Below, piece by piece: positions 7,612 to 64,000 of a stretch of 64,000 nt of DNA; the first letter of the stretch is position 1, and each line of letters begins with the position of its first letter. Origin of the DNA: an uncultured Thermoplasmata archaeon (GTDB lineage Archaea > Thermoplasmatota > Thermoplasmata > UBA10834); NCBI GenBank assembly GCA_963787465.1, contig CAWBDD010000015.1, positions 86,619 to 150,618 on the forward strand. The letters run 5' to 3'. The translations under genes were made by a program, and so were the position numbers. Under the pieces are notes generated by a model, which searched no databases, was not told the origin of the DNA, and saw nothing but the letters and a program-made list of their open reading frames with translations.

Positions 7612-7725
7612 TGCAGGTGCCGGGATTCGAACCCGGGCCGTTGGCTTTCGTCCCTCTCCAATTTTTCATTCTTCTCTGGAGAGAAGTTGGAAGGCCAAAA
7701 TCCTAACCAGCTAGATTACACCTGC
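7612..7725 (-). tRNA. tRNA-Gly(UCC) with an intron of about 41 nt adjacent to the anticodon loop. CCA is not encoded.
   Basis: Folded by hand. Acceptor stem GCAGGTG/CACCTGC, D-arm ATCT..GGAT, anticodon stem TTGGC/GCCAA, loop CTTCCAA (U33, anticodon UCC, A37), T-arm CCGGG-TTCGAAT-CCCGG, discriminator A. The 41 nt between the loop and the 3-prime stem strand contain internal inverted repeats (CTTCTCT/AGAGAAG). Confidence 0.7.
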
Positions 7726-41145: not shown

Positions 41146-44100
41146 CTACCAGCACTTCGAGTACCCGCAGGTCCTGCAGACGACGCAGCCTTCGACGTAC
41201 TCGACCATGCTCCCGCACTCCGGGCACTCTGGGCAGATGTCCCCCTTGTCCACATGGTTCTGCTTCTCGACATGCCCATCGGACGACAGCTGCGCACTTC
41301 CGTTGGCAGCCTTCGCCGATGGCGAGTCCTTGAGGTACCTCTCGATGGCCTTGGCCACGGCGTCGCTGCAGGAGAGGACCATGCCACCCGGCTGCCAGAG
41401 CGGCGACGGGCACCTTATGCCCCTCAGCTGCCTGACTATGCTGTCAGGGTCGATCCCAGAACGCAGGGCGAGGGATATCAGCCTCGCCACGGCCTCGGAC
41501 TGGGACGCCGTGCACCCTCCTGACTTTCCCATCTGGGTGAAGACCTCGCAGAGGCCCTTGTCGTCCTGGTTTATCGTGATGTAGAGGTGGCCGCATCCGG
41601 TCTCTATCCTCTGGGTCGCCCCCCGCGTGAGGTAGGGCCTCGCCCGGGGCGCCTTGGAGTCGTCGTCCTCCGGTGCCAGGGCCTTCTCCTTCTTCGCGGC
41701 GTCGCCGCCGACGCTGAGGACCTGGTCCTCGCGGCTCCCGTACCTGTAGACCGTCACGCCCTTGCACCCGAGCCTATAGGCCATCAGGTAGACGTCCTCG
41801 ACATCCTTCGGCGTCGCCTCGTTGGGGAAGTTGACCGTCTTCGAGACAGCGTTGTCCGTGTGCTGCTGGAAGCCGGCCTGCATCTTGATGTGCCACTCGG
41901 GCTTGATGTCCAGCGCGGTGACGAACACCCTCCTGATGTCCTCAGGCACCGCTGTGATCTCCTTCACGGAGCCCTTGGTCGCTATCTCCTTCATCAGGTC
42001 GTCAGTGTAGAACCCGCGCTCCTTCGCAACCTCGCCGAAGAACGGGTTGACCTCGGGTAGGATGTCCTTGTCCATGACGTTCCGCACGTAGGCGACGGCG
42101 AATATCGGCTCGATTCCGCTGCTCGCGGCTGCGATGATGCTGATCGTCCCCGTCGGGGCGATGGTCGTCACAGTGGCGTTCCTGATCTTCGGGTACTTGG
42201 ACGCGAGAGTGCTCACGGCGAAGTTCGGGAAGCTGCCCCTCTCCTCCGCCAGCGCGACTGATGCGCGGTGCCCCTCGTCATCTATGAACTTCATTATGCT
42301 TGCGGCCGAGGTCGATCGCATCCTCGGTGTCGTACGGTATCCCCATCACGAGGAGCATGTCCGCGAAGCCCATGATCCCCAGCCCGACCTTCCTGTTGGA
42401 CCGGGTCATCTTCTCTATCTGGGGGAGCGGGTACTTGTTCATGTCTATGACGTTGTCGAGGAACCTGACCGCCCAGTGGACCGTCTCTCTGAGCTTGTCG
42501 TAGTCAACCTCGTACCTGTCCCCCTTGAACACGAGCATGTTCGCTAGGTTGATCGAGCCGAGGTTGCACGACTCGTAGGGCAGCAGCGGCTGCTCCCCGC
42601 ACGGGTTGGTGCTCTCGATCTCACCGACGCTCGGGGTCGGGTTGTCCCTGTTGATCCTGTCGATGAACACGATGCCTGGCTCGCCGTTCCGCCAGGCCAT
42701 GTTGACGATCATGTCGAAGACATTCCTCGCGTGCATCTGGCCGGAGGTCTGCTTGGTCCTCGGACTCAACATGTCGTAGTCCTTGTCCTCTTCGACTGCC
42801 TTCATGAACTTCTCGGTCAAGGCCACCGAGATGTTGAAGTTCGTGAGCTTCGCGCTCTCCTTCTTCGCGGTTATGAAAGAGATGATGTCAGGGTGGTCGA
42901 CGCGCAAGATCCCCATGTTGGCCCCGCGTCTGGTCCCTCCTTGCTTGATGGTCTCGGTCGCGGCGTTGAAGACCTCCATGAATGAGATCGGGCCGGACGA
43001 CACACCTGCTGTGCTCTTGACCGAGTCGTTGGCGGGGCGCAGCCGAGAGAAGCTGAAGCCGGTCCCTCCCCCGCTGTTGTGGGAGATGAAGCCGTTCGCG
43101 AGGTACGCGTGACGCTGGGGGATGGTCAGGTCCACGACCTCCCGCTTCCCTGCCGGCCGGACCTCCTTCACCTTGACGAAGTAGTGCCCTTCGTCATCTG
43201 GCTCGGCGTGCGCCAAGCCCTCCTTCTCCAGGGCGCTTACCATCGTCTCCTGGTCGATGCCATGGAGCCTCCTGCGCAGGATGATCGAGTCGAACCCGAT
43301 CTTGTCCCTGAAGACCATCAGTCCGGACCTGGTGCAGATGGTGAGCCTGTCTAGCCGCCTGCCGAGCGGGACACCTATGTAGAACATCATCGTCTGGATG
43401 TCCCTCGCGGACTCCTCCGACGGGCACTTGACGCTGACGACCCCCTCGGGGCTGATCCATCCATGCTCGGTGAAGGTCCTTCGCAGGAACGCGCAGATCG
43501 CCGGTTCGTCCCCGTGGATGAGCCTCGGGTCCACGGTCGAATCCGAGAACTCCTCGATGGCGTGTGGTACCTCGGCCTCCGTCCCCCCGAGCCATCCGCC
43601 GAGCTTCATCACCAGGGTCGCACCGGGCCTGAGCTGGCCTATCTTCCTCCAGTCGAAGTCACCGTCGTCCACCCTTGCCATTAGCCTGTGGAGGGCGGTA
43701 CCGGTGATGGTGTTGCCCTCCTCGGTGATTACCGAGAAGACCTCCTGGACTCCGTTCGAGTGACTCTCCTGTACCTGGTCCATGCCCTCGTGTGTCTCGA
43801 TCCAGGTTCCGCTCTCGATTGTGCCCAGGGTCCTGCACCCAGAGTCGGTCATGACGAGTGTCTCTGGCACAAGGCACTTGTGGATGAGGGCCGTATACTT
43901 TATCGCATCGAATATGTCCTCCATCGAGTCCCCTATCGGGAGGACGAAGCACGCGGAGAGCTGGCCGAGCTCCCTCCCTGCGTTCATCAGGGTGGGGCTG
44001 TTCGGCATGAACTCCAGCCTTGCCATCATCTCGTAGAACCTCTCGGCCACCTTGTCGACTTCGGTGTCTGTCTTGCCGTAGTTCTTCTCGGCGAGCGCGA

Positions 44101-44324
44101 TCGCCCTGGAGACACGCTCAAAGAGCTGTTTGGGTGTCTCGACGGGCTTGCCGTCATCGTCCTTCTTGAGGTATCTCCTCTCAAGGACCGTCCTCGCATT
44201 GGAGGTTATCTGGGGCTCGAGTTCCCATCCTCTCGCCGTGGCTGAAGCCTTGTTTCCTGGGGCGACAATGCCCCCTCTTCCGTTACTCGATGGAGACGCT
44301 ATTACTCCCCCTGTTGATCTTCAT
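41146..44324 (-). CDS. nrdJ: Adenosylcobalamin-dependent class II ribonucleotide reductase (NrdJ) carrying an intein. The assembly has two 1-nt frameshifts in this gene.
   Basis: N-extein ...FMPNSPTLMNAG...ALIHK, then the intein, then SGGGTGFSFSRLRP. The C-terminal half is in ORF 41146..42321. The N-terminus (MKINRG..WELEPQITSNARTVLERRYL) is recovered only by removing one C from the CCCCC run at 44307-44311. A second shift at about 42295-42305 is an extra G in ctcGGccgc. Confidence 0.8.
43076..43876 (-). mobile_element. Intein (267 aa) inserted in NrdJ.
   Basis: Begins with Cys (CLVPETLVMTDSG), ends with HN, followed by Ser. It splits the conserved ALIHK | SGGGTGFSF region. Confidence 0.8.
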
Positions 44325-44766
44325 TCCTCATCCAGGCCTAGATTGTCGGTCAGCCAGCGATGGCCCTGCCCTTCATTCACGGAAGAGAAGTTTCATGCCG
44401 GTCCCCCTCCACCTCTGCCTGGACTCCGCTCTGAGGTGTGACGCGCTACCGAAACGCGGGATGCACTAATCCACGTTTCTCGCTTAAAGAGCTTTTCGAA
44501 CAAGACCTGATAACACATTTCGCTTGGTGTTTCCGGTCCATCGAGTCCATGACGTTCGGATTTGTTATCAGGTTATTTATCAATTGCCATTGCCAGTATG
44601 TTTCGAAGGCGCGTCGACAATTGGTGCGCCGCAATGAACTCTGTGATTGGTCGTGGTCAGGAACGCTTCCGGTGCATCCACTCGACTCCCTGACCCTGTC
44701 GTCTTTGCAGGCGATGAATTGAATACGCTCGCTCGCATCTCCCCACCGGAAGCGTATCGGCTTCAG

Positions 44767-45021
44767 GTGCTTAGTCTGAAGGTCAAGGTCAAGCTGTTCG
44801 CGGTTTTCAGGGACATAGTGGGTTCAAAGGAGGATGACCTGGAGGTCACCCCTGGGACGACCGTCCAGGGGCTTCTCGATCAGTACATACAGAAGTTCCC
44901 CCAGATGGCAAAATTCAGGGATCACATCATCCTCTCGGTGAACAAGGAGTATGGGGCCCCGTCCAGGACCCTGAAGGATGGCGACGAGGTGTCCTTCCTC
45001 CCGCCCGTAAGCGGCGGGTAA
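44767..45021 (+). CDS. MoaD/ThiS-family ubiquitin-like small protein (SAMP-like) ending in Gly-Gly.
   Basis: KVKVKLFAVFRD beta-grasp start and C-terminal ...LPPVSGG followed by the stop. GTG start. Confidence 0.7.
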   Translation: MLSLKVKVKLFAVFRDIVGSKEDDLEVTPGTTVQGLLDQYIQKFPQMAKFRDHIILSVNKEYGAPSRTLKDGDEVSFLPPVSGG

Positions 45022-45128
45022 GGGCCGTCCCGCCCAACTGGCTAGGGGAATCAGTATATACGGGTCCGCCCAATTGCTTCTAGATGCTCGGAGGGGAGTC
45101 CACTTTGAGTGTACTGTCTCGCGTGACT

Positions 45129-46865
45129 ATGCGTTTCCAGGTGCGCATGTGTGCCGTCCTTCTACTGTCCGTTCTCTTCGCTGTGTCGGTTCTTCTGCCG
45201 GCGCTCGCACCTGGTTCGGACGAGCCGGATGTCATCGCCCACGCTGAGGCAGGCCCTCCCGTGTACTACACATACCATGACTACGGCCAGGTCAAAGACG
45301 ACCTCTACACGGTCCAGGGGCAGCACGGCGACATCATGAAGGTGTACGACATAGGCGACAGCTGGGAGAAGGTCAACGGCACGGCCGACCGTGACATCCT
45401 GGCGGTCAAGATCTCCGACAATGTGGAGGTCGACGAGGACGAACCTGAGACAATCATAATCGCCCTCCACCATGCTGGAGAGTGGCCCGGGATGGAGGTC
45501 GCCCTGTCATACATCGAGAACGTGACGGACGACTATGGGAACGACACCCGAGTCAGTTGGCTGGTCGACAACAGGGAGACCTGGATCGTACCCGTCGTCA
45601 ACCCTGACGGCCTGGACTTCGCGATGCATGACACTGACAGCTGGCGCAAGAACAGGCACTGGTTTCCAGCCGACGCCACCTATGGCGTCGACCTCAACCG
45701 CAACTACGACGGCTCGCAGAACGGCGACCCAGACGGGGAGTGGGGTGGCGCCGGGACCTCGCACGACCCGTCATCCAGCACCTACTGCGGAGAGTCACCC
45801 TTCTCGGAACCGGAGACACAAGCGGTCCGCGACCTCGTCGAGGCGCACGACTTCCAGATTGGCATCGACTTCCACACTTCGGGCGACCTTGTCATGTGGC
45901 CGTGGAACTACGACTACGTCCTCGCGCCTGACGACGCCGACCTCGTGAGGATAGGCGAGGAGATGGCCGCCCTCAACGGCTACACCCCCGAACAGGGGGT
46001 GGTCCTGTACGCGACGACCGGTGATTCCACTGACTGGATGTACGGCGGGGCGGATGTCTACCCCTACTGCATCGAGATCGGGTCCGAGCAGCATCCGGAC
46101 CTTTACGATGAGGTCATACCGCTCCTCGATGAGAACTACCCCGTCATCCTGCTCGCCATGGAGCTAGCCGGGGACAGGGAGGAGAGGCAGTTCGACATAT
46201 CGCACACCCCCGTCGCATCCATGGACTACTCGTCGTCCGGTTTCACGCTCACCGCAGACATCACAGCCGGGAGGGGCGTGGACACGGCCGCGGTCGATGT
46301 CGTCTACAGCGTCGACGGCGGAGCGTGGGAGAGCGTGCAGATGACTCAGACCGCATCGAACGACACCTACGAGTCGGTCATCCCGTCCCAGGTCGCTGGG
46401 AGCGTGATCGACTACTACATCGTGGCCCATGACCTCGCAGGCGTCGAGAAGATGTCACCGACCTACGCCCCGTACGACATACACACATTCACGGTGACCT
46501 CGACGGGGACTGCACCCACGGCGAACGCTGGTGTCGACATCGATTCGTTCGTCGGGACCGCGGTCGCCTTCGACGGCACGGCCTCCTCTGACGACGTGGC
46601 CATCTCGAGCTACGAGTGGGAGTTCACCTACAACGGCTCGACGACGACCCTGACGGGAGCCGAGCCGACATTCACCTTCTGGACCCCTGGCGTCTACGAC
46701 GTGACGCTCACGGTAACCGACGGGGACGGGCTGACGGACGAGGACCATGTGACGGTGACGGTGTACGACACGGCCATACCGGAGTTCGGCACGGTCGTCG
46801 GACCCGTCGTCGCGACGGTCATGGTCTTCTTCGCGGTCATGTACGCCCGCAGGCGTGCGACCTAG
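45129..46865 (+). CDS. Secreted M14 zinc carboxypeptidase with a PKD-like domain and a PEF-CTERM archaeosortase sorting signal.
   Basis: Signal peptide. HAGEW...E zinc motif, NRNYD and IDFH motifs. The C-terminus is IPEFG + TM helix + RRRAT. Confidence 0.75.
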   Translation: MRFQVRMCAVLLLSVLFAVSVLLPALAPGSDEPDVIAHAEAGPPVYYTYHDYGQVKDDLYTVQGQHGDIMKVYDIGDSWEKVNGTADRDILAVKISDNVEVDEDEPETIIIALHHAGEWPGMEVALSYIENVTDDYGNDTRVSWLVDNRETWIVPVVNPDGLDFAMHDTDSWRKNRHWFPADATYGVDLNRNYDGSQNGDPDGEWGGAGTSHDPSSSTYCGESPFSEPETQAVRDLVEAHDFQIGIDFHTSGDLVMWPWNYDYVLAPDDADLVRIGEEMAALNGYTPEQGVVLYATTGDSTDWMYGGADVYPYCIEIGSEQHPDLYDEVIPLLDENYPVILLAMELAGDREERQFDISHTPVASMDYSSSGFTLTADITAGRGVDTAAVDVVYSVDGGAWESVQMTQTASNDTYESVIPSQVAGSVIDYYIVAHDLAGVEKMSPTYAPYDIHTFTVTSTGTAPTANAGVDIDSFVGTAVAFDGTASSDDVAISSYEWEFTYNGSTTTLTGAEPTFTFWTPGVYDVTLTVTDGDGLTDEDHVTVTVYDTAIPEFGTVVGPVVATVMVFFAVMYARRRAT

Positions 46866-47290
46866 TCGAGGACCACGGCCTTCAGCTTCTGGGCCCTCGG
46901 GCACTCGACGTCGGCCTCCTCTATCGAGAGGATCCTCAGCTTCATCCCCTCTGAGGCGCCCTGGGCGTGGCAGAGCCTGTAGTTGGCGCACCCGATCCAC
47001 GCGCAGCGGCTCTCCTCGTAGGTGAGGGTCGCCCCTTCCATCGCGGACCGAGCGGGCACGGCGACCCTGGTCGGGACGCGCTCCACCTCGACGACGCGCA
47101 CGCCACCTTCGTGGAGCTTGCACTCGTGGTGGACCTCCCTTATCTGGGTCACCCTGTACCTCCTGCCCGCCTCCAGGTGGAAGCAGACGTTCTTGACCTT
47201 GCATTCACGGCACTCCGCGTTGGGACCGCCGAACACGAACTCGAACCCCGCCTTGCACTGGGTCTCACCGACGACCGTCACGAGCACCAT
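46862..47290 (-). CDS. UPF0179-family archaeal protein.
   Basis: Size and Cys pattern (CRECKVKNVCFHLE) resemble UPF0179. Confidence 0.45.
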   Translation of the reverse strand: MVLVTVVGETQCKAGFEFVFGGPNAECRECKVKNVCFHLEAGRRYRVTQIREVHHECKLHEGGVRVVEVERVPTRVAVPARSAMEGATLTYEESRCAWIGCANYRLCHAQGASEGMKLRILSIEEADVECPRAQKLKAVVLD

Positions 47291-47306
47291 GGTAGAATCC
47301 TCCTCG

Positions 47307-48341
47307 TCAGACCACTTTGGTCACAGTCGCCAGGCGCTCTGCGGCTTCGGGTGTCAGCCCCCGGTCGCCGAGTACGGTGTACCTGTCCCTCCGTATCTCA
47401 TGCGCGTGCACGAGGGCTTCGATGATCTGCTCATTGGTGACGCCTAGCTCCTTGGCGCACGTGGGCGCGCCTATCTGCGCGAGGGAGTCCCGTATCCTCT
47501 GCCAATCTCCCCCGTGCAGGTACATCATCATGATCGACCCGACGCCGCACTGCTCCCCGTGGAGAGCCTTGCCTGGCGCGATCTTGTCGAGAATGTGAGA
47601 GAACATGTGCTCCGAGCCGCTCGTGGGCCTCGAAGTGCCAGCGACGGCCATCGATATCCCGGATATGATTATCGGCCTTATGGCCACCCATACGCTCTCC
47701 TCGAGGTTGGGCTTGATCGACTTGGCGTTCTCTATGATGGCCTCGGCCGCGTACTTCGCGAGGTTCGCCGCGCTCGAGCTGAACATCTCGGTCCTGAGCC
47801 TCTCGGAGAGCTCCCAGTCGAGGACCGCCGTGGAGTTCGATATGACATCGGCGCAGCCGGAGGCGAGGAGCCTGTAGGGTGCCTTCACGATCAGCGCGGT
47901 GTCGGCCACGACCCCCAGGGGTACTGTCGCATTGAGAGAGAGCGAGTTCCCTCCCTCCTTTATCGACGCGCGCGGGCTCGCGAGCCCGTCATGGGACGCG
48001 GAAGTCGGGACGCTGAGGAATGGGATCTTCAGGTGGGCGGATGCCAGCTTCGCGAGGTCGATCTTGCTCCCGCCGCCAACACCGAGGAGGAATCCCGCCT
48101 TGACCTCCTTGGCCAGCTCCTCCACCTTGACGAGGTTCGACTGGCTCGCCTCGCCTACGACTATCTGCTGGACGTCGTAGCTCTCATGGACGAGGATGTC
48201 GCGGAGCTCGTTCGCCGCAAGCGTGCCCGTGGTCTGTCCCGTCACGATCAGGGCGTTCCCGTCGAGCTCGAAGTCCCTGCACATCTTGCCCGTCTCGTGC
48301 AGGACGTCGTGGCCGGCAAGGACCTGCCTGGGAAAACTCAT
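47307..48341 (-). CDS. egsA: Glycerol-1-phosphate dehydrogenase [NAD(P)+] (the archaeal lipid backbone enzyme).
   Basis: SFPRQVLAGHDVL N-terminus. GGGSKIDLAK and iron-ADH-like metal ligands. Alternative upstream start at 48413. Confidence 0.85.
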   Translation of the reverse strand: MSFPRQVLAGHDVLHETGKMCRDFELDGNALIVTGQTTGTLAANELRDILVHESYDVQQIVVGEASQSNLVKVEELAKEVKAGFLLGVGGGSKIDLAKLASAHLKIPFLSVPTSASHDGLASPRASIKEGGNSLSLNATVPLGVVADTALIVKAPYRLLASGCADVISNSTAVLDWELSERLRTEMFSSSAANLAKYAAEAIIENAKSIKPNLEESVWVAIRPIIISGISMAVAGTSRPTSGSEHMFSHILDKIAPGKALHGEQCGVGSIMMMYLHGGDWQRIRDSLAQIGAPTCAKELGVTNEQIIEALVHAHEIRRDRYTVLGDRGLTPEAAERLATVTKVV

Positions 48342-48443
48342 CGTGCGGGCCTTGGTGAAGCCATTGGTAGTCAAAGCGCACAACCTTGGTCCCAATATGA
48401 TTGGCCGCTTCATCTACTTATCGGTTTGTATCCGACGGATGCC

Positions 48444-48451
48444 ATATATTT
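48444..48451 (-). promoter_or_regulatory. TATA box (AAATATAT on the minus strand) for egsA. It is the last recognisably archaeal element before the junction.
   Basis: AT-rich octamer 30-100 nt upstream of the egsA start candidates. Confidence 0.4.
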
Positions 48452-48477
48452 GCCAGGCGCGGGCCGGGTCACGGAGG

Positions 48478-48668
48478 GGTAAGAGCTTCGACCAGGTCGA
48501 GCAGGACCGTCTGAAGACGGTGCCCGCCGGCCGCTTCGGCAATCCCGAGGAGTTCGGTCAGCTGTGCGCATACATCTGCAGCGCGCAGGCGAGCTACGTG
48601 ACCGGGCAGAATTTTCTGATCGACGGCGGGAACGTATCCGGGCACGATGTGACCTGCGGTCACATCGT
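48478..48668 (+). pseudogene. 3-prime fragment of a bacterial short-chain dehydrogenase/reductase (FabG-like). It has no start codon or N-terminus.
   Basis: ...PAGRFGNPEEFGQLCAYICSAQASYVTGQNFLIDGG matches the SDR C-terminal consensus. Begins abruptly about 25 nt after the archaeal promoter. Confidence 0.6.
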
Positions 48669-48813
48669 GCGAGGCGTGAGGCGTGAGGCGAGAGGCGAGA
48701 GGCGAGAGGCGAGAGGCGAGAGGCGAGAGGCGAGAGGCGAGAGGCGAGAGGCGAGAGGCGAGAGGCGAGAGGGGAGGCGAGAGGCGAGAGGCGAGAGGCG
48801 AGAGACGGGAGGT
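48669..48813. repeat. Tandem heptanucleotide repeat (GAGGCGA/GAGGCGT)n, about 20 units.
   Basis: Read directly from the sequence. In the SDR frame it would encode an (EARGERR)n repeat. Confidence 0.9.
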
Positions 48814-48820
48814 GGGAGAT

Positions 48821-48940
48821 GATTAAACCTCCCCTCCCCTCGTGGGAGAGGGCTGGGGAGAGGGGGCTGGGTGGCGTCTGCTTCCCCGTTCCCCGACCTC
48901 TCCATAGAGGGCGTGGAGAGGGGGTTCTTTTCGCGTCCCT
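48821..48940. repeat. REP-like GC-rich palindromes (CCTCCCCTCGTGGGAGAGGG; CCTCTCCA-N9-TGGAGAGG).
   Basis: Inverted repeats with a CCTCTCC/GGAGAGG core. The same family recurs at 56755-56815 and 58420-58690. Confidence 0.6.
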
Positions 48941-49032
48941 CGCGCCTTGCCTCTCGCGCCTATAATTGCTTGATCCGAACACACCGCGAGGTCAACCCAT
49001 GAACGCTCCCTACCGATCCCAAGCAGTTCCGC

Positions 49033-50500
49033 ATGCAGCTCAAGGACGCGAAGCTGTTCCGCGAGCAGTGCTACGTCGACGGCGCAGTGGGTCGACGCCG
49101 ACAGCAGGCAGACCATCGCCGTCACCAACCCCGCGACCGGCGAGCGTGATCGGCACCATCCCGAACATGGGCGCGGCCGAGACGCGCCGCGCGATCGAGG
49201 CCGCCGACCGCGCGCTGCCCGCCTGGCGCGCGAGGATCGCCAAGGAGCGCGCAGCGATCCTGCGCAAGTGGTTCGAGCTGATGATGGCCAACCAGGACGA
49301 CCTCGGCGCTCATCATGACCACCGAGCAGGGCAAGCCGCTGGCCGAGGCGAACGGCGAGATCGCCTACGCCGCGTCGCTTCATCGAGTGGTTCGCCGAGG
49401 AAGCGCAAGCGCGTCTACGGCGACATGATCCCGCACGCATCAGGCCGACAAGCGCATCGTGGTGATCAAGCAGCCGGTCGGCGTGTGCGCCGCGATCACG
49501 CCGTGGAACTTCCCGACGGCGATGATCACGCGCAAGGTCGGCGCCGGCGCTGGCGGCCGGCTGCACCATGGTGGTCAAGCCCGCGACGCAGACGCCGTTC
49601 TCGGCGCTGGCGCTGGCCGAGCTGGCCGAGCGCGCCGGCATGCCGACGGGCGTGTTCAACGTCGTCACCGGCACGCGCCGACGGAGATCGGCGGCGAGCT
49701 GACCGCGCAACCCGATCGTGCGCAAGATCACCTTCACCGGCTCCACCGAGGTCGGCAAGATGCTGATGGCGCAGTGCGCCGCAGACGATCAAGAAGGTCT
49801 CGATGGAGCTGGGCGGCAACGCGCCGTTCATCGTGTTCGACGACGCCGACCTCGACGCCGCGGTGGAGGGCGCGATGGCCTCCAAGTACCGCAACACCGG
49901 CCAGACCTGCGTCTGCGCCAACCGCATCCTGGTGCAGGACGGGGTCTACGACGCCTTCGCCGAGAAGCTCGCCGGCGACGGTGCAGGCAGCTCAAGGTCG
50001 GCCCCGGCACCGAGGCCGGCGTCAACGATCGGCCCGCTGATCGACGACGAACGCCGTGGAGAAGGTCGAGGAGCACATCGCCGACGCGGTGGCCAAGGGC
50101 GCGCAGGTCGTGGTCGGCGGCAAGCGCCACGCGCTCGGCGGCCCGTTCTTCGAGCCCACCGTGCTCACCGACGTGACACCGGCGATGAAGGTGACCACGC
50201 GAGGAGACCTTCGGCCCGGTCGCGCCGCTCTTCCGCTTCAAGACCGAGGAGGAGGCGATCGCGATGGCCAACGACACCGAGTTCGGCCTGGCCTCCTACT
50301 TCTACGCGCGCGACATCGGCCGGGTCTGGCGCGTCGCCGAGGCGCTCGAGTCCGGCATGGTCGGCATCAACACCGGCCTCATCTCCACCGAGGTCGCGCC
50401 GTTCGGCGGCGTCAAGGAATCGGGCATCGGCCGCGAGGGCTCGAAGTACGGCATCGAGGAGTACCTCGAGATCAAGTACCTGTGCATGGGTGGTGTCTGA
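49033..50500 (+). pseudogene. gabD: Succinate-semialdehyde dehydrogenase (GabD). Contiguous homology with at least 10 frameshifts.
   Basis: MQLKDAKLFREQCYVDGA.., [42 protein letters not shown] and GQTCVCANR motifs, found across all three frames. Confidence 0.7.
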
Positions 50501-50556
50501 GGGGAGGGCGGGACTGGTATGGGAGCATTGGAAGGGACGGGGCTGTAGCGGGGGCG

Positions 50557-51060
50557 GTGGTGCATCGCGGGGCGCAGATCATTGCCGACCCCAAGCTTTC
50601 GGATCTGCCCTATACGATCGAGCTGGACGAGTGGGGAGACATAAGAATGACACCAGCGGCGAGCCCCAAGCATACGGAGATCGGCTTCTCTCTGGCGTTG
50701 ACCCTGCGTGCCGCCCTGGGAGGCAAGGCTTTCCAGGAAGGTGCGGTCGTGACGCCGCATGGGGTACTCACGGCGGATGTTGTGTGGTGCTCACCCGGAT
50801 ATGTTGGTCGCCATGACGATGTGTTCGCGGACGGTGCACCCGCCATGCCTGAAGCGCCCGAGATCTGCGTCGAGGTCGTGTCGCCGTCCAACTCCATAGG
50901 AAAGCTGCAACAGAAGATGGCAGCCTATCTCGCTGCAGGGGCGATCGAGGCCTGGATGGTTTTGGAAGATCTGTCGATTCGTGTATTCAGCCCTGACGGT
51001 GAACAGAAGGAGTCACGGTTCGCTGTCGACCTCGCGACATGGCGGCGCGGTCTGGCCTGA
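50557..51060 (+). CDS. Uma2-family (DUF820) putative restriction-endonuclease-like protein.
   Basis: [26 protein letters not shown] and [12 protein letters not shown]...[12 protein letters not shown] motifs. The start is uncertain. Confidence 0.55.
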
Positions 51061-54000
51061 CTCGCCGCGGCGCGCCGGTCTACTGCGTGGCACCGGGTTT
51101 GGATGGCGGAGCCGGCGCAGGAAGTGCCGTTGCATTGCCACTTTGCATCGCTTCCGGCACGAGCGCTTCGCGCAGGTTGAAAGGAGTCTTCAGGGTTCGC
51201 TCCAGCACTCCCGAGGATTCTGCGGCCACCGCCGTCGGCGCCACCGGGACGATCTGCGGATTGAGAGCTTGCCGCTGCACGCCCACCGGCACGGCGTAGG
51301 CGCCGCCGCCCAGCACGTACCCGAGGAACGGCAGGAGCTTCAGAATCGAGTTGACCGCCTGCACCGGTGCGACGGCCACGGTCATGTCGACCGAGTCGTG
51401 GAACCAGTCGACCTTGCCGCGTGCGCACCACGTCGAATGGCTGCGCGTCGAGCACGACCGCGTCGATCAGGATCGCGCCGCTTTCCAGCCTGCCGGTCGC
51501 CTCGAACTTGCTGTAGGCAAACCCGGAGTCCCGCAAACCGAGTTTGTTGCCGCGCAGCAGCTCGCTTGCATTGATCAGGTTGAGTACCTGGGCCAGCCCG
51601 GTCATGCGATCTACGCGTCCATCGCGGGCCACCAGGTGGAAGGGTCCGGTGATCCGTTGCGGCACCTCCCGGTACGGACCGGTGGCGGTGGCGTGAATAT
51701 CGGCATTCAGGCGGCCGGTGACGATGGTTCGCTCATTGGACAGACACCGCAGTGCGGGTGCGGCGTCGAGGTCGCGCGCTTGCAGCACGACATCGAAGCT
51801 CACCGTCTCGGGCTGCATGCGTCCTCCTCCCGCCATCGAGATACCGCACAACCTCGCCTCCTTGACCGCGAAATCGATGTGGCCGGGCGCGATGTCCAGG
51901 GCGGCGAGCAGCGGCTCGACGTTATAGGGGTGATCGACCAGGGACTGGATGGCCAGCCGCACCTTGCCCTCGACCGGGAAATCCCATGACATCGGTTTTT
52001 CCTCGGCTGGTTTCTCCCCGGCTGCGTCGCGAGCAGCCGAGCAGCCGTTTCACGTCGACATGATCCGATTTGACGTCGAGGTCGAGCGCATAGCGCTGGT
52101 CCGTGCCGCGGATCGTGCCGCTGACGTCGAAGTTCGTGTCTCGCAGCGTAAAGGATGTGGCAACACGCAAGGAGCGCTCGTCCGCCGTGAGCTGGGCGTT
52201 GTGCACTGTCAGGTCGTGCCCATGCGACCCAGCCTGGTCGACGTTATCTCGTTGATCCGAAGCTGCCCGTTGGCGCGAAAATCACGCGGCTGTTGAATCG
52301 GCACTCGGTAGGTCAAGTCGCCCGACAGGCGAGCGTCGGGTCGCTGTACGGTATGCCCGATCCGGACCAGCGAGGCTCCCGGCCAGGTTGCCGGCGAAGC
52401 TGCCTTCGATCACGTCCTGCTTCCAGCGAACGGACATCTGCGCGTTCGGACTGCTCGTCCTGGACGGCGAGTTTGCGGACATCGACCACCTTGGGTTGGA
52501 TCAGCGCGTCGAAGCTGCACGGTCGTCTTGCCGGCGAACATCAGCTCGCCCCGGGTCTCGAAGCCGTTGTCCACCGGCCAGCGCAGCGCCGCCGGGCGAG
52601 CCTCGAAGGGCGCGATACGAGCCGCTTCGTGACTCGATCCCGGCGCGCTCCCACCCCCACGCGAGCAGCTTCTCGCCGACCGGGCCGCTGGCCTGCACGT
52701 CCAAGCGCGGTTTGCCGTCGCGCAGACCCGACACGTTCCCGCTTACCTGCAGAGCGGTATCCAGTACCTCGACCTTCACGCCTTGCACGGTCAGGGAGCT
52801 GAGATCTCCTCGAACGCTCCCCCCGTCCAGGCGCAGCTCTCCCGGGGGCTCCGGATGACGTCAGACGCACGGCCTTGGGCGTCACGCTGATCGTCGCCGG
52901 ACCACTTGGCCGGATCTGCCAGCGCGCCGGTGACGGTGCGCGCCTGCACGAGGCCGCGTCCCGGCGAGCACGCGCAGACCCTTGGCAGCATCGGGTAGCT
53001 CGAATCGCTTTGTTGCCCAATCGAACAGCTCGACCAGCGCCAGATCGGCGTCGCAGCTGCTGATCTGGAGCCTGGACGCGGCAAGCGTGATCTGGCCGCT
53101 GCACTGGTTGAACCCGCTGTTTCCCACGGTGCCGGCCAGCCCTTGCACGGCGAGCTCGCTGCCGTCGAATCGTGCCTTCGCAGCCGTGATCTGATCGGCC
53201 AGGGCAGCTGCTCGAGCGAAGCTTGCGCACGGATCGCGTCGACTTCGGCGCGGATCTGCAGATGTGTCGAACGTACCGTCCAGCGCGACGTTGCCGTGGC
53301 GCGTTCCCGGTCAGCTCGCGCAGCGCGTCCAGCTTCGCGCGGTCGCGAGGCGCGAGCTGGCGTTTGGTGAAGCGCCAAGACCTGCGCCAGGATCGGCCCG
53401 CCATTGGAGTCGTGGCAGCGACCGTCTCCGTCCGGTGAAATCCAGGTCGATGCGGCCGTCGTGAACCGCGCTGTTGCCGCTGGCTGCTTTGACCCCTTTG
53501 CGCGCTGCAGCTTGCCCTGCACCAGCGCCAGGCGTGGCGCTCAGATCGCGGATCGGGAGGTCCGGTTGCTTCAATGTCATCGCACACGCCGGCCAGCGTT
53601 CCGCGAACCTCGATGGCTTTTTGCCACTGGTCGATCTGGTCCAGCTGCAAGGTCGCCTCGAGCCCGCTCAGCTGGCCGGCCGTGATCATCCGGGCGTACT
53701 GCTCGACCTCCGGCGTGTCCGTCGTCCACGGCAGGACCAGCTGCTTCACGGTCTCGAGCTCGGCAGGCTGCATCTTGACTTCCAGACGCTGCTGGTTCCA
53801 GTCCGGGCTGAAGGTCAGCACCGCCGCAGCTTGCAGGGCCGGCATCCGCCGCGCGGATGTCCTGCGGCGGCGATCCGCAGCCCGCCGTCGGTCCACTGCG
53901 CCTCGCCCGCAGATCTCGAGTCCTGGATATCGAGCTTGCTGTCGCCGCTGGCGATCGACAGGGTGTTCGAGCTCGCCTCGAAGGTCCCGCGCAGCGCCGG

Positions 54001-54773
54001 CGAGCTGTCGGCGGTGAATCTGCGCGCGCAGCGAGACCAGCCCGTGAAGCTTGCGTATCTCCCTGCACGCCGGCCACCGCCAGCAGCGTGGCGAGATCGA
54101 TGCCCGTCGCATTGAGCTGCGACGCTGCCCTCGAAGCGCTCCGGGTCGAGGCTGATCTTGGCGTCGACCCGGTGCGCGACGTCCGACGCGGTGGTGACCT
54201 CGATCTCGAAGCGGCCGGAGCGGTTGGCGGCGCGGCCGTTGATCTCGCTCAGGGTCAGGCTCGCCTGATCGGGCACCGAGAGGACGAAGCGGCCGCGCTC
54301 GATGGTGAGTCGAGGGACGCGCAGGTCGACCGCCTTCAGCCGGGAAATGCTGGCGAGGGCCGCGCGCAGATCCGAGACCGTGAAGGTGCCGGAGGGCCCG
54401 TGGACTGCAGGAGTGGGCGCCGACGATGACGGTGATGTCCGGCGCAACCAGCGCTATGTGGCTGAGGCGCACGTCGCCCCACAGCAGCGGCAGCAGCGCG
54501 GTGGTGAGGGTCAATGCTTCGACCTTGCCCTTGGCGCGTGCCGGCGGGATGCTGAACGGAGGCGCCCTCGACGCTGATCTTCGGTGCCGGGAACCAGTCG
54601 AGCTCGAGGCGAGCGACGCGCCACTGCCCGCCGGTGGCACGCGCCAGATGCCGCAGCGCCGCCGCCTTGACCGACTCGGAGTCCAGCAGCAGAGGCAGCG
54701 ACAGCAGCAGTGCCGTCAGGACGACCAGGAGAGTGGCCGCGCCGAGCGCAACCCACTTCAGTATGCGCCGCAT
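51060..54773 (-). pseudogene. asmA: AsmA-family outer-membrane biogenesis protein, heavily frameshifted.
   Basis: N-terminus MRRILKWVALGAATLLVVLTALLLSLPLLLDSESVKAA (ORF 54336..54773). An AsmA-type C-terminal region lies in ORF 50925..51992. The interior is a mosaic of frames. Confidence 0.5.
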
Positions 54774-54953
54774 GCCTGCATGGAACGTGAGATCGGGATT
54801 GTTGACTGGCCGGCCGTGATATTACGCGAAGCCGCCCGGCAGGGCGCGGCGTGCTGCGGCACGAGGACGCGATCTGTGACGCAGCTCGAAGTGTGGCCGT
54901 TCCCGTCAGCGGAGGTCTGACCCCGCACTGGCTAGCCCGGGTAGACTAGCAGC

Positions 54954-56668
<1,715 letters not shown>

Positions 56669-56754
56669 GAGCGTGGGCGACGTCAGAACGCGGCAGGCCA
56701 TCGCCGCTTGCGCTGCGACTCTGTCTGACGCATGCACCCGAATCGTCTCCCGAC

Positions 56755-56815
56755 GCACACCCTACCCTCTCCCGCTAGCGGAGAGGGGGACCTTCTCTAT
56801 CGCGGAAGAGGGAGT
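56755..56815. repeat. REP-like palindrome (CCCTCTCCCGCTAGCGGAGAGGG).
   Basis: Perfect inverted repeat downstream of dgoA. Confidence 0.6.
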
Positions 56816-56879
56816 ATTGTGGCGCGCCTCCCGAACGCCTGTCTTTGTGCAACCAGCCCTTCGCAGTAGAAGCCAGCAG

Positions 56880-57497
56880 CTGCACCGCCGCCCGGAACTT
56901 GGCCGCGCTCTTGCGTCACTTGCGCGGCAGTGGCGCCGGGCTTGTAGAGCGCAGAGCCGAGCCCGAAGCCGCTGGCGCCGGCCGCCCAGTACTCGCCCAT
57001 GTTCTCGACGCTGATGGAGCCCACCGGGATGACCGGCACGGCCTTTGGCAGCACCGCGCGCAAGCGCCTTGAGCACTTTCGGGGGGCTGGCCTCGGCCGG
57101 GAACAGCTTGAGCCCGTCGGCGCCCGCTTCGAGCATCGCGAACGCCTCGGTCGGCGTGCGCGAAGCCGGGCAGGGCAGTGAGCCTGAGCGCCTTCGCTTC
57201 CACGACGACCTTGGCGTCGGCGTGCGGCATGACGATCAGCCGGCCGCCCGCTTGCGCCACCTCGTCCACCTGTTGCGGACTGGTCACCGTCCCGGCGCCG
57301 ACCAGCGCCTGCTCGCCGAGCTCGCGCGCGAGCAGTGCGATGCTCTCGAACGGAGCCGGGGAGTTGAGCGGCACCTCGACGATCGCGAATCCGGCATCGA
57401 CCAGCGCGCGGCCGATCTCCAGGCACTCGCCGGGTTCGACCCCGCGCAGAATGGCCACCAGCGGACAGGCCGCCAGCGCCTCAGTGAAGGCGAGCAT
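56880..57497 (-). pseudogene. dgoA: 2-dehydro-3-deoxy-6-phosphogalactonate aldolase (DgoA), frameshifted near the C-terminus.
   Basis: MLAFTEALAACPLVAILRGVEPGECLEIGRALVDAGFAIVEVPLNSP. The 3-prime end is approximate. Confidence 0.6.
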
Positions 57498-57499
57498 CG

Positions 57500-58377
57500 T
57501 CAACCTCCTGTGAGTTGCGTGCCGAGTCGAAACAGCCCGCGCACGACGGCATCCGGATCGAGTACGGTGGCGTCGCGGCCGAACTGGCGCAGCGCATGCT
57601 GGTACAGATCCACGAGGGGCTTGGCGCCGAGCAGGAAGACGGCTGTCGCGGCGCTGCGCGCCGCCACCAGCTCGTGGCCGATCAGGATGCCGGACAGATA
57701 AGACGCGGACACATCGTCCGGCACTTCGCCGAACAATCCGCGCGCCCGCACGCCGAACAGGTGATGCAGGAGCCCGCCGGCATCCTGGGCGCGCCGCACG
57801 CCGGCGGCGAACCACTGCAGATCGGTGGGCCCGTCGTGCATCATGCGTCCAAGAATGCTGTGCGCCTTGAGCACGGCGAACGCCTCGCCGGTCATGTGGG
57901 TGGAGAAGCGCACCACCGTGCCGTCGCGTACTTCGACCCATTTGCTGTGCGTGCCGGGCAGGCAGATCCAGGCGCTCGCGGGCAGCTCATCGAGCACACC
58001 GAGGATCTGCGTTTCTTCGCCGCGCATGACGTCGGGCACGCCGGCCGCATCGCGGCTCGACAGGCCGGGGCAATCCAGGCGCGCCGCTCGCCCCAGCGCA
58101 CTTCGCGCAGCCCCGCGCCGATCTCCGTCGCACCAGCCGGGCAGCTCGCGTAGGGCGCCTCCACCCAGCCCTGGCGGCTGCCGATCATGCCGCTCATCAC
58201 GACCGGCGCCTCGCCCGCCGACAACCAGTCGCCGACCTGAGCTTCCAGGGCCTCGGCGAAGCGGCTGCCCTCGACCTGCATGATCCCGAGCGGTGCGCCG
58301 CGCCGCTCGACCACGCTGCCGTCCGCGTCCAGACGGTAGGCGCGGAAGCTGGAGGTGCCCCAGTCGATGGCGATCAT
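57500..58377 (-). pseudogene. dgoK: 2-dehydro-3-deoxygalactonokinase (DgoK), frameshifted.
   Basis: MIAIDWGTSSFRAYRLD N-terminus. The C-terminal half is in ORF 57500..58039. Confidence 0.6.
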
Positions 58378-58419
58378 GCTGCAGGCCGCAGAGCAGCCAC
58401 GGGACTACTGACCCGACGG

Positions 58420-58690
58420 GTGAATGGGAACTCCCTCTCCCCTCGCGGGAGAGGCAACAGACTCAAAGGTCCCTCTCCCCGCGCGGGAGAGGGTAGCGTG
58501 AGGGCCGGGAGAGGGGAACGTACTTCTAGAGGCAACTCATCCGTGTCCGTCACGGGTAGAAGCATCTGTCGTGCTCTGACTCCGCCGTGAGGTCTCGCAA
58601 CACATCCCCCTCTCCCCCGCCCTCTCCCACGAGGGGAGAGGGAGTTTTCTTTAAGCCGCCAGCCGATCCACACCCTCTCCCGCAAGGGCG
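58420..58690. repeat. Cluster of at least 4 REP-like palindromes (CCTCTCCC-N4-6-GGGAGAGG variants).
   Basis: ctctcccctcgcgggagagg, ccctctccccgcgcgggagaggg, ccctctcccacgaggggagaggg and ccctctcccgcaagggcgagag, all in an intergenic region. Confidence 0.65.
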
Positions 58691-58697
58691 AGAGCGA

Positions 58698-59507
58698 TCA
58701 GGCCGTCTTGTACGCGAGCGGGATGGCGGCTTCCGGTGCCAGCACGCGGAAGGTGAAGCTCTCCTGCAGGTACAGCCGCACGGTTGTGGCGCTGTGGTCG
58801 AGATAACCGATGGAGAAGTCCTGTCCCACCGTCAGCTCGAAGTCGCCGCCGCGCGTGGACAGCACCACCGCGCCGTTGACCGCCGGGCGCCCACACGATC
58901 GGCCCGTCCAGCAGCCGCCGCACGTGCTCGATGACCGGATACCCGCCTTTGGTCGTCTTGGTGAGCCCGGTGTAGCAGCGCGGGCCGAGCGCGATCCCAT
59001 ACGGTCCATTCACGCCGGTCTGCGCAGGCGATTCACGGCGTCGGCGACGATCCGCCGGATACGACTCGTAGTCGCTCGGAATGCTCAGGGTCTCTGCCGC
59101 CGCGGCCTGGGCGATGCCGGTGATGCCGCCCTCGGCATAGCCGTGGAACACCGCGCGGTCCTCGGCCAGCCCGGCGTTGCGGGCCGCCTGCCTGACCGCG
59201 TGAGATCCGGGTCAGCTGCGCCGCGCCCGACGGCTTCCAGCTCCTCGCGGGTGAGCTCGAACGGCACGCGCAGCTCCACCAGCGGCTGCACCTCGCGCAT
59301 GCGCGCCTCCACGCCCGGCTCCGGTCCGGCGCTCAAACGGCGTGCGCGCCCGTTGCTGACCGCCGACGCGTCCCAGCCCAGCGGCCCGCGGAAATCCACC
59401 AGCTTGCGCGCCGCCAGCGTGAGCTTCAAGGTGCGCCTGGCCTCCTCCTCGATCGTCGCCCAGGCGGCCTCCGAGATCGGCGCGAGGTCGCGCAGCAGGT
59501 CGTTCAT
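58698..59507 (-). pseudogene. Family 1 encapsulin shell protein (Linocin_M18), frameshifted.
   Basis: N-terminus MNDLLRDLAPISEAAWATIEEEARRTLK. C-terminus GQDFSIGYLDHSATTVRLYLQESFTFRVLAPEAA. Confidence 0.65.
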
Positions 59508-59886
59508 CACGGCACCTCCGCGCGCAGGCTGCCGATGCCGAGCGATCCGTCGGCTGCCCCGCGCCGCCGCCCGACGCATCGCCCCTGGCTCCTCGATCTC
59601 CAGGACGGACTTGTCCGCGAACAGGTAGGTGCGCAGCTGCTCGTCGAGGTGCGCGTCGTGGCGGCGCAGCCACTCCAGGACCATCGCCGCGTGCTCTTTC
59701 TCCTCGTCCCGGTTGTGCGCCAGGATGGCGCGCAGCTCGTCATCGTGAGCGGCGTGCACGCGCTGGTCGTACCAGTCGACCGCCTCCAGCTCCTCCATCA
59801 GGGACACGATGGCCCGATGGCGGTCGATGGTTTCGGGTTTGAGCACATCGGGGCTTTCGTGAAGCGTTGCGCTGGAAGCGCGCCAT
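59507..59886 (-). pseudogene. Encapsulated ferritin-like cargo protein (EncFtn) with a C-terminal cargo-loading peptide. One frameshift near the N-terminus.
   Basis: AAGGAGA SD-like sequence 5 nt before the ATG. IVSLMEELEAVDWYDQRV...HNRDEEKEHAAMVLEWLRR ferritin-like core. The C-terminus DGSLGIGSLRAEVP matches the encapsulin targeting peptide consensus. Confidence 0.6.
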
Positions 59887-60202
59887 GCTGATCTCCTTCG
59901 GCAATCGAGAAAGTCTGTTTCGAGAGTAAGCCGGAGCGGACGTGCGGTCAAGCCGCCGCGGCTGCGGTTGGGCGCGCGGGCCGGCTCTGGCGCCCAAGCG
60001 ACGAACCGCTTCACCGCCAGAGGACACAGAGGAACACCGAGGAAAGCAAAAGCTACGAGCGCAGGCCGCACGACGGGTCGATCGCGCGCACGGCCGATCC
60101 GCGAGCAGCCACTGGCAGATTGAAAGCGCTTGCATGTCCTCTGAGTGCCTCTGTCCGTCAATGAGGTTGCGCTCTTTGCCCTTGCGGTTCAAGCGAGCAC
60201 GT

Positions 60203-61747: not shown

Positions 61748-61806
61748 GGCTGATCACCTGGCGCATGGCAGTGTCGATGCAGACCGGTCGCAGGCCCGTC
61801 GGGCGC

Positions 61807-62396
61807 TCAGTTCAGGTTCGTGATGTACTGCGCGAGCGCGTCGATCTGCTCGTCGGTCAGGCTCTTCGCGTACGCAGTCATGCTGCCGGCGTCGTTGGTG
61901 CGGCGCCGCTCGCGAAAATCCTTCAGCTGCTTGACGACGTAGTCGTAGTGCTGGCCGGCCACGCGCGGCACCTCGTTCTGCCCGGAGAAACCGCCCAGGT
62001 GGCACATCGGGCACAGGGCGGCGTCGGCGACCTGCTTGCCTGTCGGTGACCTTGGCCGATTCGACCGGGTAGTTGCTCGGCAGCGGCTTCTGCTGCGCGA
62101 AGTATGCGGCCAGGTCGTACATGTCGTCCTTGGACAGGTTGACGGCCATCGGGCTCATCAACGGGTCCTTGCGCCGGCCCTTCCTTGAAATCCTTCAGCT
62201 GCAGGTACAGGTAGCGGGGGGTCTGACCCGCGAGGATGGGGTACTGCGGCACGGTGGCGTTGCCGTCCGGGCCGTGACAGGCGGCACACACGGCGGCTTT
62301 TTCCTTCCCGGCCGCCGGGTTGCCCTGGGCGTGCGCGGACAGCGCGCTCGCGCCGAGCAGCCCCGCGGTGCATGCAATCGTTACAAATTGTTTCAT
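61807..62396 (-). pseudogene. Dihaem cytochrome c4-like protein, frameshifted.
   Basis: Signal peptide MKQFVTIACTAGLLGASALSAHA. CAACHG and CHLGG haem-binding motifs. Confidence 0.6.
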
Positions 62397-62504
62397 CGTC
62401 CTGCTCGAGATCGAGCGCCGCCGTTCCGGTGAACGGGCAACAAAAAGGCCGCGCCTAGTATAAACGGACCAGGCGCGGCCCAGATGACTCGGACAGAGAA
62501 GCGC

Positions 62505-64000
62505 TTACGGCAGCGAGAACACGATGACGCTGTTGCCGCGCTTGGAGTCGATCTGCTCGTTGCCGCCGGCCGCGACGGCGATGTACTGCTTGCGGCCGAC
62601 CATGAAGGAGGTGGCGGGAGCGTTCACGCCGGCGCCGCGCCTGGAACGACCACAGCTTCTTGCCGGTGCGGGCGTCGTAGGCGGCGAACTCGCCGTTGCC
62701 TTCACCGTTGAACACCAGGCCGCCGGCCGTGGCCAGCACGCCGCCGATCAGCGGCTGAGGCGTGTCGTGCTGCCAGGCGATCTTGCCGGTGTCGAGGTTG
62801 ACCGCGGACAGCCGGCCCCACTGCTTCTCGCTCGGGATCACCTTGAAGGCGCCGCCCAGCCACAGCTTGCTGCCGCCGGGATACTCGGAGGACTCGACGT
62901 GGTAGGTCATCGGCTGGTGCAGGTTGGCGGCATAGGCCAGGCGCAGCCTCGGGTTGATCGGCCATCGGCGACCATTCGACGCCACCGTTGGCGCCAGGCA
63001 GCATGCGCGCACCTTCCGGCGTGGGCAGCACCCACATGTTCTCCTGCGGGATCATCGCGTCGGAGAAGCGGATCAGCGACAGATCGTCGCGACGGTGCAC
63101 GTAGACGTGGCCGGTCTTGCCGCCGTGGATCGCCACCGGAATGGTCTTGCCATCCTTGCCCTGCGCTTCCGGTCAGGATGACCGGGCTCACCGCGTCCAG
63201 ATCCCACACGTCGTGCGCGACGTACTGGAAGTGCGCCTTGTAGGTGCCCGGTCTCCAGGTCGATCGCGACGATCGAGTCGGTGTAGAGGTTGTCGCCGGG
63301 GCGGATGTCGCCGTACAGGTCGGGCGAGGGGTTGCCCACCACGAAGTAGACGGTCTTGGTCTTCGGTCCACCGCCGGAGTCATCCACACGCCGCCGCCGA
63401 GGGTCTGGTAGAAGCTGCCGCCCATCTGCGCGAGAAGCTGCTTCTCCCTGGGGATGTCGCGCTTCATGTTGCGGCCGGTCGCGTCGTTGGCTGCCCACAC
63501 GCCTTCCTGGCCCTTCTCGGGGATGGTGTAGAAGGTCCACAGCAGGGCGCCGGTGCGGGCATCGAAGGCCTTCACGAAGCCGCGGATGCCGTACTCGCCG
63601 CCGTTGGTGCCGATCATCACCTTGCCGTCCACGGCGACCGGCGCCATCGTCTCGGAGTAGCCCTTCTCGGGATCGGCGATCTGGGTTCTCCCACAGCAGC
63701 CTGCCGGTCTTCGCGTCGAGCGCGACCAGCTTGGCGTCGAGCGTGCCCATGTAGACCACGTCGCGGTAGATCGCCACGCCGCGGTTGTTCGGGCCGCAGC
63801 AGTAGGTGGTGACCGGCCCCATCTTGTGCTTGTAGTGCCAGAACTCCTTGCCGGTCGCCGCGTCGATCGCGTGCACGTGGTTGTACGAGGTGGTGACGTA
63901 CATCACGCCGTTGTTGACGATCGGCGCGGTTTCCATCGACTCCATCACCGCGGTCTGGAAGATGTAGGCCGGCCGCAGCCTGCTGACGTTGCGCGTGTTG
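62505..64000 (-). pseudogene. PQQ-dependent alcohol dehydrogenase (quinoprotein). The 5-prime end lies beyond the window. Frameshifted.
   Basis: TYCCGP vicinal-disulfide motif and W-rich PQQ beta-propeller repeats. Stop at about 62505. Confidence 0.65.

Follow-up and report, generated by a model that had tools for sequence, protein, structure and literature searches.

Archaeal and bacterial halves of the window

The window, the whole stretch of 64,000 nucleotides analyzed here, carries DNA from two sources. Positions 1 to 48477 derive from a Thermoplasmata archaeon and hold essentially intact genes, and positions 48478 to 64000 are Burkholderiales-like DNA, from an unrelated bacterium of soil type, that remains colinear with bacterial contigs to the last base. 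The features around the junction and to its right are collected in Table 1.

Table 1. Features on either side of the join, from egsA to the end of the window
Feature	Position	Strand	Remarks
egsA (glycerol-1-phosphate dehydrogenase), 368 aa	47307..48413	-	Pfam Fe-ADH_2, 1e-35
Archaeal intergenic region with egsA promoter	48414..48468	-	TATA-like AAATATATGG and conserved ATACAAACCGATAAGT
Receiver gene stump: last two codons and stop (CCT CCG TGA = P P *)	48469..48477	-	Comparison with L102-L104
Breakpoint	48477..48478	.	Blunt; no adapter, no shared repeat, microhomology at most 1-2 nt
SDR gene 3' fragment, codons ~203-259 of 259	48478..48652	+	No start or promoter; Pfam adh_short_C2 185-234/236
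Perfect 13-bp stem with 3-nt loop, overlapping the SDR stop codon	48642..48670	+	Inverted-repeat pair I2, 100% complementary
GAGGCGA heptamer array, x20.6	48671..48812	+	Tandem Repeats Finder, 94% matches, score 242
REP-like imperfect palindrome and short mirrored (TCGCCTC-like) right arm	48813..48960	+	Upstream of the gabD promoter
gabD (succinate-semialdehyde dehydrogenase)	48999..50503 (end approximate)	+	15 frameshifts, all insertions
AsmA/YhdP-like outer-membrane biogenesis gene	51080..54773	-	26 frameshifts; 81% aa identity over 1220 aa (frameshift-aware)
AidB-like acyl-CoA dehydrogenase gene	54955..56602	+	24 frameshifts
KDPG/KHG aldolase and 2-keto-3-deoxy-galactonokinase (DGOK) genes	56859..58377	-	4 frameshifts
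Cytochrome c and PQQ-dependent dehydrogenase genes	61813..64000	-	8 frameshifts; bacterial synteny up to the window end

The GC content is 62.3% to the left of the join (positions 1 to 48477; computed left of 48450) and 68.3% to its right. Tetranucleotide frequencies correlated at 0.92 to 0.96 among archaeal chunks (n = 6), at 0.97 between two bacterial chunks, and at 0.65 to 0.84 across the join. Both measures of composition, whose comparison on either side had been suggested as a check, split at the join. These values, together with colinearity with Thermoplasmata on the left and with Burkholderiales on the right, agree with the original prediction of an abrupt switch from archaeal to bacterial DNA.

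The archaeal markers claimed for the left side were confirmed, namely, egsA, a Hel308-type helicase with archaeal domain 4, and an intron-containing tRNA. The tRNA is 114 nt long (positions 7612 to 7725, minus strand) and covers the full 71-position model in Rfam, which implies an intron of about 40 nt; it was not called by ARAGORN. No complete archaeal gene follows egsA before the join. When species-representative genomes were scanned for egsA, the only matches were MAGs of Thermoplasmata and Methanomassiliicoccales, the best of them at 85% amino acid identity. A TATA-type promoter for egsA lies at about 48440 to 48455, in agreement with the TATA box claimed at about 48450, and is kept in eight relatives (alignment A1).

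Between 37 and 48.46 kb, the window is colinear with nine Thermoplasmata MAGs, and this colinearity ends at about 48460 in all nine. Upstream of egsA and on the same strand, each of the nine carries a gene for a 120-aa CheY-like receiver and a further 9 kb of conserved genes; neither the body of the receiver gene nor any of these further genes was found in the window. More than 10 independent Thermoplasmata assemblies share the gene order receiver-egsA-UPF0179-M14-ThiS-RNR, and all of them lose similarity to the window at 48458 to 48479. Contig L087 from JGI, 90% identical at the nucleotide level, aligns continuously with positions 45578 to 48479 and then extends through 5.3 kb more of the conserved upstream genes.

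To the right of the join, the window was compared with four Burkholderiales contigs (L083 to L086), in which the gene order is MlaA, SDR, gabD, AsmA (only in L084), AidB-like acyl-CoA dehydrogenase, KDPG aldolase, DGOK, RraA, cytochrome c, and PQQ dehydrogenase. The window keeps this order from 48478 to 64000. It ends inside the bacterial block, and statements about the bacterial side refer to this interval; the relatives with which the bacterial parent was compared are all at 81 to 88% amino acid identity. Searches of the right half against 80 archaeal loci revealed no significant similarity, and the only BLASTN hits among plasmids were generic matches to gabD and acyl-CoA dehydrogenase (67 to 85% identity).

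The gabD gene has a TATAAT promoter at 48961 to 48966, is about 80% identical at the nucleotide level to proteobacterial gabD genes, and is matched by them in all three frames. When the inserted bases were deleted relative to the reference, GabD became full-length and free of stops, and the best database matches of the corrected protein, at 85% amino acid identity, included proteins named Burkholderiales bacterium, which L083 to L086 encode. The AsmA protein of L084 was likewise matched in several frames of the window by tblastn. One open reading frame farther to the right (59085 to 60161, minus strand) combines an EncFtn-like domain with the N-terminal part of an encapsulin shell protein (Linocin_M18); this is probably not a true fusion but two adjacent bacterial genes joined by a frameshift error.

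The breakpoint and its surroundings

The 142-aa UPF0179 protein of the window has exact matches in the Logan assemblies of runs ERR4334725 and ERR4334726. Exact-protein look-ups with the egsA, M14 peptidase, and PALP proteins of the window found no identical protein on record. Short-read contigs of these two runs (L093/L094 and L102/L103) and one from JGI 3300037042 (L104) were compared with the window. L093 and L094 are 99.1% identical to positions 42593 to 47544 with no gap, and L102, L103, and L104 are 99.3 to 99.6% identical and ungapped over positions 47526 to 48477, with L104 starting only at 48064. Against L102 and L103, egsA is 99.6% identical at the nucleotide level with zero gaps. 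The intergenic region that follows is the same as that of L102 letter for letter, and in a base-by-base comparison, the last 78 bases before 48477 are exactly those of L102. The same archaeal species, at 99.1 to 99.6% nucleotide identity, is therefore represented in at least three other public data sets (contigs L093, L094, L102, L103, and L104).

Past 48477, L102 reads CGCGATCTTCTCGATC..., the end of the receiver gene (...EKIAPP*), and the window reads GGTAAGAGCTTCGACC.... All three contigs that reach this position (L102, L103, and L104) run on into the 120-aa CheY-like receiver gene (P0241), as does L087. Since L102 to L104 match the window up to 48477 and then diverge completely, the breakpoint lies between 48477 and 48478. 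Only a stump of the receiver gene is retained, and its 118 other codons are missing from the window.

The bacterial sequence begins equally sharply. The SDR gene is complete (259 aa) in four of four bacterial relatives, L083 to L086. The fragment in the window showed 84 to 93% amino acid identity in tblastn to residues 201/203 to 257 of the SDRs of L083, L084, and L085, and nucleotide identity to the L084 SDR (89%) begins at GGTAAG, at window position 48478 (alignments A2 and A4). The expected start-less 3' fragment of an SDR gene within about 25 nt of the egsA promoter is thus present, as seen both from the Pfam match and from these residues. Both genes are cut internally at arbitrary positions, the receiver gene two codons before its stop and the SDR gene at about codon 203 of 259.

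The join itself was scanned for SMRTbell, Illumina, Nextera, ONT, and 454 adapters, with negative results, and no direct repeat or tRNA was found there. No segment is common to both parents at the join; identity to the archaeal contigs extends through 48477, and identity to the bacterial SDR gene begins at 48478. An exact search of JGI metagenome contigs showed the 64-nt junction to be absent from them. The same junction in a closed genome or in independent data had been named beforehand as a finding that would speak for a real join; it was looked for and not found.

An archaeal strain might in reality have acquired 15.5 kb or more of Burkholderiales chromosome very recently, with its receiver gene destroyed or replaced. 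Such an insertion would account for the contiguity of the given sequence, and the far side of the inserted block would lie outside the window. Transfer between domains occurs in Thermoplasmatota in general. However, the junction is missing from three same-species assemblies. The genes of the block belong to the core of a bacterial chromosome and keep their bacterial order; among them is AsmA, an outer membrane biogenesis gene useless to an archaeon. The first 6 kb of the block are colinear with L084 and contain no integrase, IS element, tRNA target, or direct repeat. No tRNA was found anywhere on the right side of the window, and the composition of the block is unadjusted towards that of the host.

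The original prediction placed the join at the heptamer tandem repeat. The comparisons above move it: the real join lies 193 nt to the left of the start of the array at 48671. Nor does the SDR gene run straight into the repeat, as had been supposed. The apparent read-through is due to one inserted G near 48629 (+1), and its removal gives a normal C terminus (...DGGTYPGTM*) with a stop at 48650 to 48652. The hairpin that overlaps this stop is present in both the MFE and the centroid folds. The predicted number of about 20 GAGGCGA copies was accurate (20.6 by Tandem Repeats Finder), and an imperfect palindrome follows at 48837 to 48911; inverted repeats I1, I3, and I5 also fall in this block. 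The heptamer and palindrome block is intergenic, placed between the SDR stop and the gabD promoter, and as single-stranded DNA the region is more stable than 100 of 100 shuffles (z = -3.5).

At the position of the array, L084 has about six heptamers of degenerate sequence (GGCACGA, GGGGCGA, and similar; alignment A3). The sequence that follows the array, up to 48960, is homologous to L084 positions 4790 to 4960, with the core CCCCTCTCCCCTCGTGGGAGAGGGCCGGGGAGAGGGGG common to both (A3), and L084 carries mirrored CGCCTCG-type units on the far side of this core. L084 is homologous to the window across a single block, from the 3' end of the SDR gene through the array and the palindrome to the gabD promoter. 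By this homology, the GAGGCGA array is native bacterial intergenic DNA and the expanded left arm of a palindromic element. Within the spacer between SDR and gabD (48671 to 48960; 4750 to 4960 in L084), the left arm has 20.6 units versus about 6 in L084, and the right arm is short.

Palindromes of the REP/BIME type and heptanucleotide VNTRs are known bacterial intergenic repeats. The element in the window resembles the former in being a GC-rich imperfect palindrome between two same-strand genes and the latter in its flanking tandem units, whose copy number varies between relatives (about 6 in L084 and 20.6 in the window); on sequence grounds, the array is a lineage-specific VNTR. An imperfect intergenic palindrome is present, as predicted. 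REP elements are defined by genome-wide repetition, and the roughly 15 kb covered of this bacterial genome contains one copy of the core. The core is single in the 15.5 kb of the window and occurs elsewhere among the four bacterial loci only at the orthologous site in L084.

Low-complexity arrays are a classic cause of false overlaps, and the array lies less than 200 nt from the switch, so that an assembler jump through the GAGGCGA array or the REP-like element has to be weighed as a source of the join. The breakpoint, however, falls 193 nt before the array and within SDR coding sequence. The SDR fragment, hairpin, array, palindrome, and gabD belong to one L084-homologous block, and the same-species archaeal contigs have no such repeat at or near the break. 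A graph error through a repeat would need sequence common to both parents at the join, and there is none; it is therefore excluded, and we give this explanation practically no weight.

A step in sequence quality at the join

The whole right half of the window is full of single-base insertions, a feature that the original prediction did not include. Frameshift-aware protein-to-DNA alignments of eight bacterial genes with their closest homologues revealed 78 frameshifts in 10.5 kb of bacterial coding sequence. Of these, 67 are +1, 3 are +2, and 8 are -1, which makes 70 of them insertions. The frame-corrected proteins are 69 to 88% identical to their homologues. The first frameshift on the bacterial side occurs 150 nt from the join.

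The flanking archaeal sequence from 38.4 to 48.5 kb (about 10 kb) contains a single +1 frameshift, in the RNR gene, when full-length proteins are aligned; the same archaeal control with best-matching segments gave none. Over about 5.9 kb, the archaeal sequence shows no indel relative to the same-species short-read contigs. The frameshift density is therefore about 1 per 10 kb on the archaeal side and 1 per 135 nt on the bacterial side, a step of about 75-fold exactly at the join. Gap counts from plain nucleotide alignments are unreliable below about 85% identity, since compensating gap pairs appear also in clean archaeal genes. A homology-free track of the GC3 phase showed about 2.5 frame switches per kb over 48.9 to 64 kb versus 0.25 to 1.25 per kb on the left, where, in a finer-resolution track, nearly all switches fall at gene boundaries.

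The RNR gene (41148 to 44302, minus strand) contains an intein and is 89% identical at the amino acid level to a 1052-aa protein of contig L099. It is split by one +1 frameshift at about 42297, an extra C in AAG[C]ATAATGAAG. This extra C is probably a residual sequencing error, of the same non-homopolymer insertion type as those on the bacterial side. Elsewhere on the archaeal side, two long open reading frames on the minus strand (21626 to 23653 and 22398 to 26147) overlap by 1.25 kb, with a switch of the GC3 phase at about 23.57 kb. Neither has a Pfam match. They may represent a second archaeal-side frameshift (around 23550 to 23650) within one gene of about 1500 aa.

On the bacterial side, the frameshift density falls with distance from the join. 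Between 49 and 56.6 kb (gabD, AsmA, and AidB), there is about 1 frameshift per 70 to 140 nt, and between 56.9 and 64 kb (aldolase, DGOK, cytochrome c, and PQQ dehydrogenase), about 1 per 210 to 870 nt. Consensus depth may rise away from the junction. The inserted bases between 48820 and 64000 avoid homopolymers, with 13 of 63 equal to a neighboring base versus a background of 40% and only 4 in runs of three or more; their G+C content of 68% matches the local composition. To our knowledge, homopolymer-avoiding insertions are the textbook error profile of no platform. The avoidance might reflect a run-length or homopolymer-compressed consensus step.

Natural pseudogenization of the right half was also considered and was rejected, since 90% of the indels are insertions, every gene is affected, the GC3 periodicity is intact, and the genes read through once corrected.

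The step in quality also bears on the possibility of a real insertion. The bacterial block has about 75 times more frameshifts than the flanking DNA, which is impossible for one molecule sequenced at one depth, and its genes are intact once the insertions are removed, so there is no sign of decay. What would be expected of a genomic island, namely, mobility or integration genes or an att/tRNA target at the boundary (the first 6 kb next to the join) and a sequencing quality equal to that of the flank, was not found. We consider a real insertion highly improbable. If the join were real, the quality step would then stem from polishing with data of a population lacking the insert, and we regard that as just as improbable.

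Origin of the join and consequences for the source record

No 75-fold step in indel frequency at one base is possible in one molecule at one depth, and same-species genomes from three independent data sets lack the join. For these reasons, we conclude, with a probability of about 0.93, that the join at 48477/48478 is a technical chimera, one that would exist in no cell. The lineages on either side are unrelated, the junction is absent from independent assemblies, and the breakpoint is arbitrary and without the hallmarks of integration. The original prediction had favored an assembly or binning chimera or a concatenated template over a natural fusion. The same-species contigs without the junction, the more than 10 Thermoplasmata with receiver and egsA side by side, the complete SDR gene in the relatives, and the count of 78 frameshifts versus 1 all speak for that choice.

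In the origin proposed here, a high-support Thermoplasmata consensus would have been joined bluntly to a low-support Burkholderiales-like consensus from the same or a co-processed sample. The connection may have been a chimeric long DNA molecule or read, formed by fragment-to-fragment ligation in library preparation, or else a false link in the assembly graph. An assembly of noisy single-molecule long reads would have extended the high-coverage archaeal contig into low-coverage bacterial sequence, and the single-base insertions there would be residual read errors that remained where consensus depth or polishing was insufficient. The same type of error occurs on the archaeal side about 75 times more rarely. 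The heptamer array, the hairpin, and the REP-like palindrome are genuine parts of the bacterial spacer between SDR and gabD and had no role in the join.

The noisy long-read assembly route is the most likely one. The platform and the chimeric read were both deduced from errors that are dominated by insertions outside homopolymers and from the lack of parental sequence shared at the join. The step of about 75-fold at the join points to unequal consensus depth. The dominance of insertions, the intactness of the genes after their removal, and the rarity of the same error type on the left suggest one noisy single-molecule platform, with a deep consensus for the archaeon and a shallow one for the bacterium.

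A join of this kind could also arise if two separate contigs, one archaeal and one from a low-coverage bacterial contaminant of the same bin, had been placed end to end by concatenation or scaffolding, with no N spacer between them, during construction of the record or template. The join is blunt, with nothing shared and no adapter, and both genes are truncated, as at contig ends. The frameshift density peaks near the join, as it would at a thinly covered contig end (about 1 per 70 to 100 nt in gabD and AidB and 1 per 250 to 870 nt in PQQ dehydrogenase and DGOK). The bacterial part, at about 0.7% indels, has far fewer of them than raw long reads and must therefore be the consensus of several reads already; such a multiread consensus is explained equally well by a low-coverage contig assembled on its own and by a chimeric read. 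The evidence on the join comes from sequence comparison, in which the absence of an adapter remnant counts against the chimeric-read route. On the other hand, the archaeal side has no errors as far as 48477, which lies in unique, nonrepetitive sequence where a high-coverage contig has no obvious reason to end. The two halves differ strongly in composition, and composition-based binning should have kept them apart; there are also no Ns at the join. We judge the end-to-end concatenation of contigs to be unlikely, if a good deal less so than a real insertion, and prefer a chimeric molecule or read, given that the archaeal sequence is flawless as far as a position that is both arbitrary and unique.

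Chimeric contigs between genomes, in prokaryotic genome and MAG assemblies, are the target of GUNC (PMC8201837). The window resembles such contigs in that one contig holds two unrelated lineages with a sharp boundary, which is absent from other assemblies of the same species. Here the lineages differ at the level of the domain (Thermoplasmata and Burkholderiales). In contrast to those cases, the join in the window is placed to the exact base and coincides with a change in indel rate of about 75-fold. Most reported chimerism of MAGs is between contigs, as a result of binning, whereas that of the window lies within one contig.

A second comparison is with chimeric long reads and low-coverage, unpolished consensus, as in PacBio CLR-type data. 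The likeness lies in the blunt join without shared sequence, the dominance of single-base insertions, and the restoration of genes upon their removal. Unlike chimeric single-molecule reads, the window has no SMRTbell or other adapter at the join, and its insertions avoid homopolymers.

The join is within-contig genome chimerism and not a biological feature, and it is a quality flag on the source record. From 48478 on, this record contains at least 15.5 kb of foreign, low-quality bacterial sequence, which should be trimmed. Used in combination, a step in frameshift density and the divergence of same-species short-read contigs from the window at one base provide a test for chimeras that does not need the reads. 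The data sets that yielded L093, L094, L102, L103, and L104 could be drawn on for validation or repair of the source genome on its archaeal side. If the record is left untrimmed, bacterial genes (gabD, AsmA, encapsulin, and PQQ dehydrogenase) enter the gene inventory of the archaeon, false claims of transfer between domains are invited, and the true neighbor of egsA, a receiver/kinase module, stays hidden.
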